A stretch of DNA of 64,000 bases, from contig DASQJL010000076.1 in assembly GCA_035631035.1 (NCBI GenBank), positions 13,482 to 77,481 on the forward strand. The letters run 5' to 3'. Below, piece by piece: positions 37,585-42,725 of the stretch. The stretch comes from Candidatus Binatia bacterium (GTDB lineage Bacteria; Eisenbacteria; RBG-16-71-46; SZUA-252). A model generated the notes under the pieces. The model was not told the origin of the DNA, did not search any database, and saw only the letters and a program-made list of their open reading frames with translations. Positions within the stretch are counted from its first letter, which is position 1, and each line of letters opens with the position of its first letter. The position numbers were made by a program, and so were the translations under genes.

Positions 37585-40500
37585 GTGCGCGCGCGACGGC
37601 GACAGGGCGCCCGGTCCGTCGTCGCGTGCGCGATCGCGCGCGCGCGCGCCACTCTGGCCATCGCCGTCGCCGTCACGTGCGCGTGGGCGCCGCGCGTTCT
37701 CGCCTACCCGGTCGCCACCATCCATCCCGGCGGGGACGGCGCTCCCGAGGACAGCATCGTCCTCGAATTCCCGGTGCGCCGGGCGCCGAGTCTCCTCTCG
37801 CTCCGCGCCGTGGCGCCGCTCGCCACCATGGCTGCGAGCGCCGAGCCCGCCACCCTGCTGCGGCGGGACGCCGACCCGCTCGTCTCCGGATCGGGGGGAG
37901 CGGGCGGAGCGGGCGCCGGGGCGCAGGACGCGGCCGACCGGCAGGCCGACGCGCTCGTCGTGAGCGGCGCCAAGTCGTTCGCCGTCGAGATGGGGCGGAA
38001 TCGCGACGCGTCCCTCCACCAGACGCTGGACCTCACCCTTCGCGGCAAGGTGGCCGGCGACCTCGAGGTGGCCGCGACGCTGAGCGACCAGCGGCTCCCG
38101 TTCGAGCCCGACGGCTCGACGCGCGAGCTGGAGGATCTCGATCGCGTCTCCATCTCGCTGCGCGCGCCGCAGGGAGGCGCCACGCTGGGCGACTTCCGCC
38201 TGGAGGGGATTCCGGGCGAGTTCGCGAGCGTCACGCGCGCGCTCCAGGGGGTGCAGGGGGAGGCCAGGGTCGGGGGACTTCGCTGGGACGTCGCCGCCGC
38301 CAGCCCGAAAGGCGAGCGGCGCTCGCTGGAGTTCCGCGGCGAGGACGGGAAGCAGGGCCCCTACGCCCTCCTCGGGCGGGGCGCGGACGCCGACCTGGGC
38401 GGAATCGTCGCGGGATCGGAAACGGTATGGCTGGACGGCGTGAAGCTGCGCCGCGGCGCCGACCTCGACTACGTGATGGACTACGGAGCGGCCTCGCTCA
38501 CGTTCACCGTCCGCCATCCGGTCACCGCCGAGAGCCGGATCGCGGTCGACTTCGAAGGGGCGAACGGCCGCTATCGCCGCACCTTCTACGCCGCGACGAC
38601 GCGCCGGGAATGGGGCCGCGGGGGATGGTACGCCTCCTACCTGCGCGAGGGGGACGACGCGAAGAGCCCGCTGGGCGCGGCGCTCACGCCGGAGGATCGG
38701 ACCGCCCTGGGCGCGATGGGCGACTCGGCCACGACCACCCTTCCGAGCGGGGTGCGCTACGTCGGCGCCGGCGCCGGCACGTACGTGTGGGACGGGTCCG
38801 ATCCCAGCCGCGCGCACTGGCTCTGGCTGGGCCCGGCCCGAGGGGACTACGACGTGGAGTTCACGCCGGTCGGCGCCGGGCGCGGAAGCTACGCCGACAC
38901 GCTGGCCGCCGACGGGACGCGCTTCTACCGCTTCATGGGACCCACGCTCGGCACCTTCGAGCCCGGCCGCGCCCTCGCCGTCCCGCGCGAGAACGCGCTC
39001 ATGGACCTGGGGGGCGCCACGCGGATCGGAGCGCTCGCCCTCGAGGGAGAGGCCGCGCGCTCGGGCTTCGACCGGAACTCCCTCTCCTCGCGCGACGACG
39101 GCGACAACACCGGGGGCGCGGGCAGGCTGGCCGCCCGCCTCGACCCGCGCGCGATCCGGATCTTCGGCGCCCGACTCGGATCGGTGAGCGCGGCGGCATC
39201 CCTGCGCGCGCGCGACGCGCGCTTCTCCTCGCTCGACCGCACCGAGGGCGCGTTCGAGAACGAGCGCTGGAACCAGGCGCCCTCCACGGCAGGCGAGCGT
39301 CGCCAGGAGTTCTCGCTCGCGTACGACCCGGTCGCGGTCCTCGGCCTTCGCGGCGAGGCGGGGCTCCGCTCGCTGAGCGGAGGGTCGCGGGCGACGCGGC
39401 GGGCGGCGGTGCTCGAGGTGCGCTCCTTCCTTCCGGGCGCGGTGCGGTGGGACGAGGCGAGGAATCGCGGGCCGCTGGGCGACGGCCGGCGGTCGAAGTG
39501 GTCGCTCGATTTCGCCCGGGTCACGGGGCCGCTCCAGCCCCGGCTCTCCGTGGCCCTCGAGCGGATCGCGGGCCAGGAGGGGGACAGCGCCGACGCGAGG
39601 TCGAGCAGGCTCTGGAGCGCCGGCCTCGGATGGAGCCCGGGCGCCGCACTCCGCCTTCGCTCCTCGGTCGGTTGGAGGCGCGACGAGGCACGGATTCTCG
39701 GCGTGTCGAACGGAACCGAGGCGCGCACCTGGGAGGGGGGCGTGGCGGCGCGCGCGGGAGACGCGTTCCTGGCCGACGCGTCTTTCTCGCGGCGGCGCGT
39801 GGCGGGATCGAAGGGGCCGAGCGCGGCCGATCTGGCCCAGCTGGTCCTGACCGGCGGCCGCGCCGGCGGGCCCGTGAGCTCCGAGCTGCGCTACGACGTG
39901 ACCCAGCTCCGCGAGCCCGCGGTGACGCGGTCGCTGACCGCGGTGGGTACGGGAGCGGGCTCGTACGACGCCTATGGGAACGCGCAGCAGGGCGGGGGCT
40001 ACGAGCTGGTGTCGGGCGCGGGCGAGCCGGCGACGCGCTCGCGGGCCACCGTGCAGCTCCGGCTGGACGCCTATCCCGGGCGGAGCGCGCGCTCCGCGAA
40101 GAGCGCGCTCCGTCCCTTCGGCGCGAGCACCTTCTTCCGCCTGGAGACCCTCTCCTCGCTGCCGCTGGGCCGGCTGGAAACGATCGCGCGCCCCTCCGAC
40201 TACCTCGCGTCCGGCTCCACGCTGCGCGGAACCCTCGCCGCGCGCCAGAGCTTCGAGGTCGTGCCGCAGGGCTCGCGCTTCGAGGCGCGCCTGGAGGTGG
40301 GGACGAGCCGCGACGTGAGCGGCGAGCTGACGGGATTGGAGAGCCGGGGGCGCGGCATGGACGGCCGGTTGCGGGTGAAGCGCGTCCTCCCCCTGGGGCT
40401 CCGCGCCACGGCCACCGCCGATCTCTCGCGCAACGAGCAGGCGGTCGCGCGCGACGACGGGGCCGGGGTCTATGCGTCGCTGGTGCGCGGCCGCGGATAC

Positions 40501-40869: not shown

Positions 40870-42725
40870 TGCGGCGGGCGAGGAATATGGCCGCGTGCAT
40901 CGCGCTGCTCGCGGCGCTCCCGGCGGCGGCGCGAGCCTCCTCGGACGCGGGGCCCGCGCATCCTTCGGCCGAGTACCGGCTGCGCGCGGAAGGGCTTCCC
41001 GACTCGCTCCGCTCGGTGATCGAGGCGGGCGGCTCCGATTCCACGAGGCGCTGGAGCGGACCCGATCTGGAATCGGCCGCGCTCCGCCTGCGCGATTTCC
41101 TGGCGGGGAAGGGGGACGTCGCGGCCACGGTGCGGCTCGCGCTCACGCGGGGCGAGGGGAGCGCGCCGGGAGCGGCGCGCCTCGAGATCACGCGTCCCGG
41201 CGCGAGCGCCAAGGATGCCGCGGCGCCGGAAGCGGCGGCCAACCCCGCCGCGCTCGGGGCCGGCGCGGGACCCAGGATCCGCGTCGACGGCCCGTTGGCT
41301 CCCGCGCTCGCCGACTCGGCGGCGGCCGCCTACCGTGCCGCCAGCCGCGGGGCCGCTTCGGTCGACGGCGTGGCCGCTGGCCTCTCGGCCGCGCGCGACG
41401 TGCTGATCGAAGCGGGCTTCTACGCCGCTCAGGTGTCGCTCGACTCGCTGGAGCTGGGCTTGGGCGCGCCGCTCGCCCATCTCCTGCTGGCGCCGGGACC
41501 GCCCGCGACGTACGAAGGGATGGAGCTGCCCGGCGCCACGGCCACGCGTCCCGCGGCGGCGGCGCGCGTCGCGGGGCTGGACCACGGCGCGCGTCTCACG
41601 CCGGCCGTTCTCGGCCTCGCGCGCGAGCGCCTGGCCGCCTCGGGCCTCTTCCAGCAGGTGGGGACGCCGCGCCTGGTGACCGGAGCGCTGCCGGGGGGCG
41701 CCCGGGTCGTGATCCCCGTCGTGGAGGAGCGCTCGAGCCGTTTCGAGGGCGCGCTCGGGGTCGCGCGCGAGGGAGGCGTGACGGGGCTGCTCGATCTCGC
41801 CCTCGGCAACATCGCGGGGAGCGGAAGGTCGGCGGGTCTCCGATGGTTCGGGCCGGGCAACGGCCGCTCCGAATACGCCGCGCACTATCGGGAGCCCGCG
41901 CTCTTCGGGACCCGCGCCGATGCCTCGCTCGCGCTCGAGGCCCAGGTCGCCGACTCCCTCTTCACCCAGACGCGCTGGTCGGCCGAGATCGGTATCGCGC
42001 CCGCGGGCGCCGCGCGGGCCGCGCTCGCGCTCCAGAGAAGCGGGAGCACGTACTCGGGGCTCGCGCGCGGGTCCAGCGCCACCTGGTCGCTGAAAGCCGG
42101 CGGCAGCCTGGATCGGCTTCGGCCGCTCCTGAATCCGGTTCGCGGATTCCGCGCGGCGCTGACCGCCGAGGCGGGGCGCCGGTCCGACCGCGTTCCCGAG
42201 CTGCCTTCGGAGAGCCGCGGGCTCTTCCGCGGCAGGGCGTCCGCCGAGGGGGCGCTCGCGATCGCGCCGCGGCGGGTGCTCGCGGCCTCCGCCCACGCGG
42301 AGGGCTCGTTCCTTTCCGGCGGCGATTTCCCCGCCGAAGAGCTTTCGTTCGTCGGCGGCACCGAGGGGCTGCGCGGCCATCCCGACCGCGCGTTCGGCGG
42401 AAACCGGATCGCCACCTTCTCGCTCGAGCACCGCTGGATCACCGACGAGCGGGGGGGGCGTCTGTATCTCTTCGCCGATGCCGCGCGGCACGATTTCTCG
42501 GGCGGGCTGGCCGCCGGCACCGCAGCGCTCTCGTCCGCGGTCGCGTCGGGCGGTGCCGCTCCGTCGCTCGCCCGAACGGTGTTGAGCCCGGGCTGGGAGT
42601 TCGGATACGGTGCCGGGCTCAGGACGAGGATGGCGTCGGGCCTGGTGGGACTGGAGCTGGGCCTGGCGCCGGGAGAGCCGCTCCGGAGGGCGACGCTTCA
42701 CGTCCGCTACGCGAGCACCTGGTGA
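40869..42725 (+). CDS. Omp85-family outer-membrane protein with three POTRA domains (TamA/BamA-like), 618 aa
   Basis: POTRA-like modules (…[24 protein letters not shown]…) then a surface-antigen D15 barrel ([15 protein letters not shown]…[34 protein letters not shown]…LHVRYASTW terminal aromatic). Confidence 0.75.

Follow-up and report, generated by a model that had tools for sequence, protein, structure and literature searches.

Giant single-chain outer-membrane barrels are rare, and their assembly is an open problem. [quoted passage not shown] In type IX secretion, PorV binds the lateral opening of SprA, and cargo is attached to lipopolysaccharide (LPS) by PorU; to our knowledge, SprA has neither an Omp85 nor an NHL partner of its own. 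Here, a locus is described in which a predicted barrel of comparable strand number is encoded next to an Omp85-family protein and a secreted NHL propeller, downstream of porU and porV. The locus lies in the window, the 64,000-nucleotide stretch of DNA that was analysed, and all features discussed below are on its plus strand.

The gene for the predicted barrel, its Omp85 partner and the NHL propeller

The gene for the 1094-aa barrel protein (37585..40869) starts at GTG 37585, abutting without a gap the TAG stop codon of the upstream NHL gene (37582-37584), and ends with the TGA at 40867-40869. Third-position GC of 0.89-0.95 in this frame is evidence of coding, and in the GC3 frame plot the signal moves at the junction to the frame of the Omp85 gene (40869..42725). 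The 1094-aa protein is also found in the database at 100% identity, and both genes are confirmed as real at these coordinates. A 1989-aa ORF in the list of open reading frames (36756-42725) is a high-GC artefact upstream of 40869.

The initial annotation had the two genes coupled by a 4-nt ATGA, with the Omp85 start at 40866, and both details require correction. The junction reads AGC TTC TGA TG, such that the ATG at 40869-40871 overlaps the TGA by one base (TGATG); position 40866 is the start of a CTG codon, so the Omp85 protein is 618 aa long, counted from 40869. A Shine-Dalgarno-like GAGGAG is positioned at 40853-40858, and with the overlapping stop and start codons it makes up a putative translational-coupling junction (40853..40871). 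The 1-nt overlap is also present in loci L001 and L083 and holds at 28% identity. In other loci, the barrel/Omp85 junctions mostly fall between -14 and +30 nt.

The downstream protein matches Pfam Omp85 (PF01103) over residues 394-598 with 42.8 bits, above the cutoff of 24, and so belongs to the superfamily. In its AlphaFold2 model (pLDDT 80), a signal peptide is followed by three POTRA domains (aa 35-281), and aa 291-616 form a barrel of 16 strands, in keeping with the three-POTRA Omp85 that had been proposed from the sequence. The L6 motif is LRGH at aa 501-504, with L501, R502 and G503 invariant. The best folds in Foldseek searches are BamA (1e-23) and TamA (2.6e-21), and by sequence, too, BamA comes first, both as a profile and as the PDB protein (1.5e-12 for BamA versus 2.7e-7 for TamA). 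Against the BamA equivalog TIGR03303, however, the protein scores 24.2 bits where the cutoff is 297, and 30 of 30 members of its subfamily fall far under that value. Judged by its model, the protein is of the BamA/TamA type, with an insertase-type fold.

The likeness to BAM extends to the L6 (V/L)RG(F/Y/H) motif and to a co-encoded beta-propeller, but the focal Omp85 has three POTRA domains rather than the five of BamA and is tied to a single client gene. The propeller differs as well, being a six-bladed NHL protein that lacks a lipobox, whereas BamB is an eight-bladed lipoprotein. The Omp85 has the architecture of TamA and, as in the TAM system, shares its transcript with one large partner of ~1100 aa. 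This partner is not a TamB, however; the prediction is of a closed barrel that bears a beta-signal rather than an AsmA-like taco, and the gene order is inverted.

The pairing of barrel and Omp85 is strict and bidirectional. The Omp85 gene is directly downstream of the barrel gene in the great majority of genome loci, a few barrel relatives are without an adjacent Omp85, and in the reverse direction the barrel gene is directly upstream in all of the testable metagenome loci fetched with the Omp85 (61/61). In nearly all loci, the gene immediately upstream of the barrel encodes a secreted, six-bladed NHL beta-propeller (36592..37584, 330 aa; Pfam NHL 3.2e-10), which has a signal peptide and no lipobox Cys, and whose family profile matches the NHL propellers of TRIM71 and Thin at 1e-68 to 1e-73. 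The three genes are conserved as a trio across deep lineages. No Pfam or NCBIfam model covers the barrel family, which comprises 4273 clusters at 50% identity; its relatives occur in 523 or more GTDB species, most of which carry the label of an FCB lineage. In the sources examined, the family and its Omp85 are annotated as 'hypothetical protein' or 'BamA/TamA family'. Neither the NHL partner nor this large unnamed family had been recognised in the initial annotation.

Predicted fold of the 1094-aa protein

The AlphaFold2 model of the 1094-aa protein (pLDDT 83.9, pTM 0.74) consists of ~40 long antiparallel strands joined by turns of 2-5 residues. Outside of two inserts, 41 strand elements of at least 7 residues can be counted, which agrees with the beta-rich character first read from the sequence, and a parity count gives 40 strands, placing both termini in the periplasm. 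The top four Foldseek matches in the PDB are entries of SprA/Sov (8GL6, 6H3I, 8GL8 and 6H3J), with TM-scores over the query of 0.27-0.38, while all other matches are at or below 0.21; by E-value, SprA is barely ahead of MtrB, BtuB and SlpA. The best 50 matches are all transmembrane barrels. Mean-field DCA of 302 homologues places sequential strand pairs at a median of about the 95th percentile of non-neighbour pairs, supporting a strand meander, and the pair formed by the first and last strands ranks 75 of 780 (90th percentile, a weak coevolution signal). From the Foldseek ranking, the strand parity and this weak signal, we infer that the barrel closes, and the protein is predicted to be an outer-membrane beta-barrel of roughly 40 strands. 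As an alternative, the initial annotation had raised a barrel of ~40 strands, of the LptD or SprA-analogue type and served by an Omp85 of its own; the SprA-analogue form of this alternative is supported by the parity count, the strict adjacency in both search directions and the BamA/TamA-type Omp85.

At the N-terminus of the protein (aa 1-40, 37585..37704), a positively charged n-region is followed by a hydrophobic helix, predicted at residues 14-33, and the signal peptide is probably cleaved after AWA or VLA; residues 34-120 are disordered in the model. Of the signal or signal-anchor originally suggested, the N-terminus resembles the former, as a cleavable-looking peptide with a disordered linker after it, rather than the latter. 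The C-terminus ends in GRFELRSSF, and its last strand, TGRFELRSSF (40837..40866), had been likened to a beta-signal. Conservation agrees with this reading, as every aligned homologue (50/50 and 40/40) retains the terminal Phe, and variation at E1089 and R1087 is almost nil.

The densest block of invariant residues is found in a small domain inserted in the barrel (aa 252-330, 38338..38574), with the motif QGPY...AGSExVWLDG..L.RG..DY.xDY..G..TF. The second insert (aa 363-468, 38671..38988) contains repeated GxG(D/E)Y hairpins and, according to DSSP, a helix at 369-377 with short strands. Of the whole protein, only the small domain aligns with TIGR04189 SprA/Sov (model positions 594-653); the phage distal tail family TIGR02217/DUF2460 is a further match for it. 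TIGR04189 is the best NCBIfam match in 34 of 40 family members (best E-value 1.2e-9), with scores of 9.5 bits for the window protein (E 0.12) and 36 bits for the best member, below the cutoff of 200. SprA_N is absent among the Pfam matches of the 40 members, and a profile of the domain does not retrieve Flavobacterium johnsoniae SprA from the PDB. At the sequence level, the link to SprA is confined to this one ~60-residue domain, which is common to phage tail proteins, and no segment of the barrel aligns.

SprA and the focal protein are both giant single-chain outer-membrane barrels (the focal one by prediction) that occur in the FCB superphylum and have a disordered N-terminal extension. The focal barrel is encoded in one string with PorV and PorU here and in many lineages, and in other lineages it is found without them. 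In contrast to SprA, the focal protein is half the length (1094 aa versus a model length of 2319), is missing the >150 kDa extracellular cap, has ~40 predicted strands rather than 36, and has its own Omp85 and NHL partners.

The wider gene string and its possible link to type IX secretion

The barrel and Omp85 genes close an eight-gene string, missed in the initial annotation, with the order porU, porV, M6-CTD, two DUF5683-like genes, NHL, barrel and Omp85. The first gene (26006..30343, with the start ATG 26006 picked by GC3 frame) encodes PorU, the T9SS C-terminal signal peptidase/sortase, a protein of 1445 aa with a Peptidase_C25 domain (Pfam 1.7e-60) and a FlgD_ig/CTD tail that scores 460 bits against NF033707 (cutoff 420). 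It is followed by a PorV-family outer-membrane shuttle barrel of 327 aa (30455..31438; Pfam PorV 2.8e-19), which scores 224.7 bits against the PorV/PorQ family NF033709 (cutoff 90) and 146 bits against the PorV equivalog NF033710, below its cutoff of 250. The third gene (31452..34829) encodes an M6-like metalloprotease that has FG-GAP repeats and carries a C-terminal sorting domain of T9SS type A, as expected of cargo. It matches Pfam Peptidase_M6, FG-GAP_3 and Por_Secre_tail, retains an intact HEFGH motif at aa 307, and reaches 228 bits against NCBIfam T9SSA_dep_M6i, under the cutoff of 600.

The two DUF5683-like proteins are paralogues whose position is kept in other loci. Protein A (34855..35718, 287 aa) has a signal peptide and an LLPGAGHLY motif, with no Pfam match of its own, and protein B (35696..36580) is 294 aa long from TTG 35696, with an alternative start at ATG 35771; the unkB-like homologue in locus L069 matches DUF5683 at 4.8e-5. 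No terminator-like site was found between the M6 gene and ligA, which follows the string together with a helicase gene and a hut operon.

This eight-gene order persists in a homologue with 28% identity and recurs across at least 11 deep sequence clusters, among them ones with loci labelled Zixibacteria and Ignavibacteria. The trio thus comes after porU, porV, the M6 protease gene and the two DUF5683-like genes in Eisenbacteria, Zixibacteria, Ignavibacteria and other lineages, and genes for CTD cargo flank the barrel even in the rearranged loci L055, L069 and L082. In ~20 loci (about 4 deep clusters), the trio is instead surrounded by housekeeping genes, and no gene of the T9SS lies within 10 kb, the neighbours being hutU/hutI, a GGDEF protein, glgA and RNase G, or ubiA, dtd, maf and a rodZ-like gene.

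Competing explanations and a proposed mechanism

Three known architectures could in principle account for a large beta-rich protein beside an Omp85. An LptD-like exporter of LPS or lipid, assembled by the Omp85 as the local part of BAM or TAM, is very unlikely. As with LptD-LptE, the barrel is very large, plug-less, in need of a partner to fill its lumen and found in housekeeping surroundings, and the attachment of T9SS cargo to LPS by PorU might hint at such a role; yet there is no LptD/OstA match in Pfam or NCBIfam for the window protein or 40 family members, a disordered stretch (residues 34-120) stands where LptD has its N-terminal beta-jellyroll, the strand number differs (~40 versus 26), and LptD is outside the best 50 Foldseek matches. 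The reversed TamB-TamA pair of the initial annotation, in which the large protein would be an inner-membrane-anchored, periplasm-spanning beta-taco that conducts lipid or protein and docks on a TamA-like Omp85, is now to be regarded as highly improbable. The three POTRA domains, the Omp85 length of about 600 aa, the TamA fold match and the TamB-like size of the partner, about 1100 aa, all suit it, and DSSP by itself cannot separate a beta-taco from a barrel. Against it, HMM searches for AsmA, TamB and DUF490 found no match, whether with the window protein (E up to 0.1) or with 40 diverse homologues (E up to 5), and the family profile retrieved no PDB sequence at all at E up to 10, from a library that includes TamB fragments. 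Among the best 50 Foldseek matches, where the TM-score to SprA is up to 0.38, there is no TamB, AsmA or lipid-transfer protein, and a signal-anchored taco is at odds with the cleavable-looking N-terminus, its disordered linker and the invariant, OMP-type beta-signal. Two-partner secretion, with the Omp85 as the TpsB transporter of a secreted TpsA passenger, is scarcely credible, its sole support being that a large beta-rich protein is paired with an Omp85. The gene order is opposite to that of most TPS loci, POTRA_2, ShlB and TPS-domain matches are absent in Pfam and NCBIfam, FhaC is not in the best 50 folds of the Omp85, which has three POTRA domains rather than two, and the large protein forms a meander of strands, with a beta-signal at its C-terminus, rather than a beta-helix.

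A more serious competitor, though still less likely than not, keeps the barrel architecture and assigns it a housekeeping envelope function apart from type IX secretion, such as the export or uptake of other macromolecules or outer-membrane biogenesis. That the trio adjoins porU and porV in some lineages would then reflect co-regulated envelope genes that share no machine. The loci in which the trio stands by itself are consistent with this explanation, as is the presence of ligA, the helicase gene and the hut operon after the string in the window. In addition, a published survey reports canonical SprA from all the FCB phyla that it sampled, Chlorobiota excepted (PMC12611786), so the barrel and SprA probably occur together, at the level of phyla at least, and a second translocon would be unneeded. 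However, the T9SS-linked order is kept in its 11 or more deep clusters at 25-40% identity, which would be hard to maintain without selection. Also against a separate function are the best NCBIfam match of the family, which is SprA, and the cargo genes that remain beside the barrel in rearranged loci. That the barrel has an SprA-like role in type IX secretion is a plausible hypothesis.

The best explanation, tentatively and at somewhat less than an even chance, is that the 1094-aa protein is a giant single-chain barrel of ~40 strands, made together with a dedicated three-POTRA Omp85 of the BamA/TamA insertase type and a secreted NHL propeller. The barrel is predicted to exceed every solved barrel in width and to have hardly any cap. 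The Omp85 would recognise the invariant C-terminal strand, fold the barrel into the outer membrane and probably stay bound to it afterwards. The NHL propeller, about 5 nm across, may dock at or plug the periplasmic mouth of the barrel, because the lumen would be too wide to stay open. More speculatively, the barrel could act in this genome like a cap-less, half-size SprA, as the channel for the outer-membrane branch of type IX secretion; CTD cargo, for instance the M6 protease of the string, might cross it, with PorV then taking over and PorU processing the product. A bolder and rather doubtful extension is that a cap-less, half-size relative or analogue of SprA, with its own TamA-like Omp85 and an NHL gate, makes up with PorV, PorU and the two DUF5683-like proteins a compact, one-operon branch for type IX export and attachment that is widespread in uncultured FCB phyla.

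With ~40 strands, the barrel would be the widest single-chain barrel known. The family, with thousands of sequence clusters that have no database model, is predicted to be as wide as SprA or wider, and the combination of a barrel with its own Omp85 and propeller would offer a natural system for how an Omp85 folds a very large barrel. Whatever their function, the barrel family, the Omp85 subfamily and the trio merit a name and profile models. Should the link to PorU and PorV prove functional, type IX-style secretion outside of Bacteroidota could use a much simpler translocon, and the barrel would provide a minimal template for understanding SprA.

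Gene boundaries and the overlapping junction

The window has a GC content of 65-76%, and long spurious ORFs are abundant. For instance, a 1989-aa ORF at 36756-42725 (+) and a 919-aa ORF at 1803-4562 (-) are both high-GC artefacts: the first is real only from position 40869 onward, and only the final ~160 residues of the second match GreA/GreB. In a GC3 frame plot, all real genes across 18.7-64 kb lie on the + strand, and the coding frame in use from 36.6 to 40.8 kb differs from the one between 40.8 and 42.6 kb. The first of these frames includes the gene for a 1094-aa protein, which extends from a GTG codon at 37585 to a TGA codon at 40867-40869 (+) and directly adjoins the TAG stop codon (37582-37584) of an upstream gene encoding an NHL propeller. 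The second holds a gene for a 618-aa Omp85 protein, from an ATG codon at 40869 to 42725 (+); the most likely start of the following ligA gene is the ATG at 42778, 52 nt past the Omp85 stop. The junction of the 1094-aa and Omp85 genes, initially annotated as ATGA, in fact reads TTC TGA TG, such that the stop and start codons share one base (TGATG), and a GAGGAG motif is found 10 nt 5' of it.

A predicted giant barrel and its Omp85 partner

The 1094-aa protein has an identical database entry, whose sole annotation is 'hypothetical'. The initial annotation had offered two readings of the gene pair, a TamB-TamA system in reversed order, or a giant barrel (possibly LptD-like) with its own Omp85. 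The protein by itself matches nothing in Pfam or NCBIfam, including the AsmA or DUF490 domains that would be expected of TamB. The AlphaFold2 model, based on an alignment of 50 homologues, is confident (pLDDT 83.9, pTM 0.74), and consists of a signal-peptide helix, disorder up to residue 120, and 41 long strand elements separated by very short turns, with residues 252-317 and 363-468 forming two inserts. The elements at 232-241 and 243-251 are best read as a single kinked strand in the model, which would bring the count to 40; as this is even, both termini would lie in the periplasm. Barrel closure, strand number and lumen size are all inferences from the prediction. Several hairpin-like GxG(D/E)Y repeats, clearer in distant homologues, are present in the second insert (38671-38988, +).

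When the model was compared with the PDB using Foldseek, the top four matches were SprA translocon entries, with E-values between 4e-8 and 2e-7 and TM-scores that reach 0.38 over the query. Next come barrels that include MtrB, BtuB and SlpA, none with a TM-score above 0.21. The 50 best matches include neither TamB nor any AsmA-like or other protein of lipid transfer, and a profile of the family found nothing among PDB sequences at E values up to 10. As an independent check, reduced-alphabet mean-field DCA was applied to 302 aligned homologues, equivalent to ~237 effective sequences, a depth that is too noisy for single contacts and provides aggregate support only. Sequential strand pairs scored, at the median, near the 95th percentile of non-neighbour pairs, which supports a strand meander, and the pairing of the first and last strands ranked 75 of 780, weakly compatible with barrel closure. 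The C-terminal strand is conserved as G-R-x-E-[LV]-R-x-x-F, with a terminal Phe that is invariant in every alignment, and looks like the beta-signal of outer-membrane proteins.

The downstream gene product scores above the Pfam gathering score for Omp85, and its AlphaFold2 model (pLDDT 80) combines a 16-strand barrel with three beta-alpha-alpha-beta-beta POTRA units, bearing out the three-POTRA assignment initially made from the sequence. A profile of the subfamily matches E. coli BamA over POTRA4-5 and the start of the barrel (1.5e-12) and TamA (2.7e-7), the same two proteins that the model matches by Foldseek (BamA, 1e-23; TamA, 2.6e-21), and loop 6 carries an LRGH motif whose first three residues do not vary. 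Profile, fold and motif thus place the protein in the insertase branch, with the domain count of TamA. It is not a BamA orthologue, given the three POTRA units and a BamA equivalog score of 24 bits versus 297, a match that was similarly weak in all 30 subfamily members scanned.

Taken together, every test run (profiles, the top 50 Foldseek matches and the beta-signal) goes against the reversed TamB-TamA arrangement, whereas the reading as a giant barrel with its own Omp85 is upheld by the ~40 predicted strands, the SprA folds at the head of the matches, and the strict gene pairing described below. The LptD-type version of that reading is contradicted by the results, as is two-partner secretion, where the Omp85 would be a TpsB and its neighbour the TpsA cargo: the Omp85 profile retrieves no TpsB, and FhaC is absent from the top 50 fold matches.

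Gene neighbourhood and spread of the family

The barrel and Omp85 genes are the last two of an eight-gene string that begins with porU (460 bits versus an NCBIfam cutoff of 420) and a gene for a PorV-family barrel (224.7 versus 90). These are followed by an M6-like protease gene (31452-34829, +) encoding FG-GAP repeats and a type IX secretion system (T9SS) sorting domain, two DUF5683-related paralogues with an LLPGxG motif (34855-35718 and 35696-36580, +), and the trio of NHL propeller, barrel and Omp85. The NHL protein has a signal peptide and lacks a lipobox, and its matches to TRIM71 and Thin (1e-68 to 1e-73) show it to be a genuine propeller with six blades. The best NCBIfam match of the M6-like protein is the 'T9SS-dependent M6-like inactivated metalloprotease' (228 bits versus a cutoff of 600); its HEFGH zinc-binding motif is intact at residue 307, and judged by this sequence it may be an active protease. 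Just 3' of porV, in the predicted M6 gene and within 100 nt of its start, is a perfect 14-bp GC-rich hairpin (GGGGAGCCAGGCCC...GGGCCTGGCTCCC, 31514-31548, +) followed by a weak T-tract, which may represent an intra-operon attenuator or stabiliser, or may mean that the M6 gene starts further downstream. The tandem DUF5683-like proteins, only distant kin of DUF5683, carry signal peptides and the motif LLPGxG...Y, and the pair is kept between the M6 and NHL genes in all T9SS-linked loci.

A homologue of 28% identity on a 1.4-Mb contig sits in an eight-gene string that is identical in content and order and shows the same 1-nt overlap. Complete Eisenbacteria chromosomes (OY970178.1, OY970342.1 and OZ244990.1) also have the string. 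When profiles of each component were run against six-frame ORFs of 83 loci, the trio turned up in almost all those whose length would allow it to be seen. The full T9SS-linked order recurs in at least 11 deep clusters of the barrel family, including loci labelled Zixibacteria and Ignavibacteria; apparent PorU matches in two loci (L055 and L069) are instead cargo proteins with a T9SS C-terminal sorting domain (CTD). In one divergent lineage (L083, 5246-9012), a DUF6754 protein and four small unannotated ORFs replace the porU-porV block before the trio. At ~20 loci, in roughly four clusters, the trio stands alone amid housekeeping genes, either hutU, hutI, a GGDEF protein gene, glgA and RNase G, or ubiA, dtd, maf and a rodZ-like gene. 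In one such lineage (L038, L057, L063, L068, L070 and L072) hutU and hutI are just 5' of the trio, and in the window a hut operon (hutH, hutU, hutI and formiminotransferase-cyclodeaminase; 46977-53124, +) lies downstream of the string; this proximity may be a remnant of ancient synteny. Further along, two overlapping ORFs with strong coding GC3 and no Pfam match (55837-56382, 181 aa; 56372-58537, 721 aa; both +) precede a stretch at 59235-63999 that holds the type IV pilus genes pilB, pilT, pilC and a PilS-like sensor gene.

The adjacent Omp85 is missing in a few barrel relatives. In the reverse direction, 79 metagenome loci were fetched with the Omp85 profile, 18 of which are cut inside the Omp85 gene, and the barrel gene was directly upstream in 61 of the 61 loci with any upstream sequence. 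Junctions between the two genes mostly range from -14 to +30 nt (21 measurable loci).

An initial word-indexed search yielded 119 barrel relatives, all 'hypothetical', of 1000-1260 aa except for truncated ones, from MAGs named Eisenbacteria or obviously mislabelled, and a third such search with a divergent profile added no relatives to those already known. An exhaustive HMMER profile search returned 4273 cluster representatives at E<=1e-3, of which 2360 reach E<=1e-30, and the best 150 matches are almost all full-length, in proteins of 1050-1230 aa. With each GTDB species represented by a single genome, relatives are encoded in at least 523 species. Labels among the best 80 are Eisenbacteria, Latescibacterota, Zixibacteria, Cloacimonetes, Ignavibacteria, Calditrichales, Edwardsbacteria and Fibrobacteraceae, with 'Cytophagia' and 'Bacteroidota' MAGs and a few less trustworthy labels (Alphaproteobacteria, Deferribacteres); what can be seen of the distribution is thus that of the FCB superphylum. 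The cluster names of 10 distant representatives read only 'hypothetical protein', no model or description of the barrel family, the Omp85 subfamily or the trio was found in Pfam, NCBIfam or source annotations, and none was found in the literature searched on the barrel family, T9SS in Eisenbacteria, or a link between Omp85 and T9SS.

Relation to SprA and possible function

The NCBIfam model for the T9SS translocon Sov/SprA, TIGR04189, was matched in 34 of 40 diverse family members (best 1.2e-9, 36 bits), always at about positions 594-653 of the model. The match falls on a small, strongly conserved domain that the barrel carries as an insertion (residues 273-325), and the region of this domain (38338-38574, +) has the motif GSExVWLDG..L.RG..DY.xDY..G..TF. 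Many members have a second copy near the N-terminus that also matches TIGR04189 (for instance, residues 50-105 of the homologue P0116), and this copy is degenerate in the window protein. The small domain likewise matches phage distal-tail and tail-tube families (DUF2460/TIGR02217 and NF052337; 25 and 17 of the 40 members scanned). A segment-by-segment scan found no barrel segment matching SprA, a profile of the small domain run against PDB sequences failed to retrieve the SprA of F. johnsoniae, and by score, length and extent of match the family is not a member of SprA. Nor, judged by position, does any ORF of at least 1400 aa in the fetched loci look like a gene of SprA size, as all lie over string genes or in their antisense frames. 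The family resembles SprA in its predicted overall fold class, in this one module, and in its gene neighbours.

Three features, a pairing that is strict in both directions, stop and start codons that overlap, and an invariant beta-signal, argue that the Omp85 is a dedicated insertase, one that probably stays on as a partner of the barrel. A lumen of the predicted width could not stay open, and the model has almost no cap, so that some partner would have to occlude it, for which the co-encoded NHL propeller would be the obvious candidate.

The barrel recurs in linkage with PorU, PorV and a CTD cargo, which favours a role in type IX secretion, in its outer-membrane branch. A function independent of T9SS is well in play, given the loci where the trio occurs alone and the SprA reported in FCB phyla (PMC12611786). 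In that survey, the FCB phyla sampled, other than Chlorobiota, had SprA (PMC12611786), a distribution by which the barrel family probably coexists with SprA at the phylum level. As modelled, the pair would join a SprA-type giant outer-membrane barrel to a dedicated Omp85 that resembles TamA, and there is a real chance that it represents a distinct machine.
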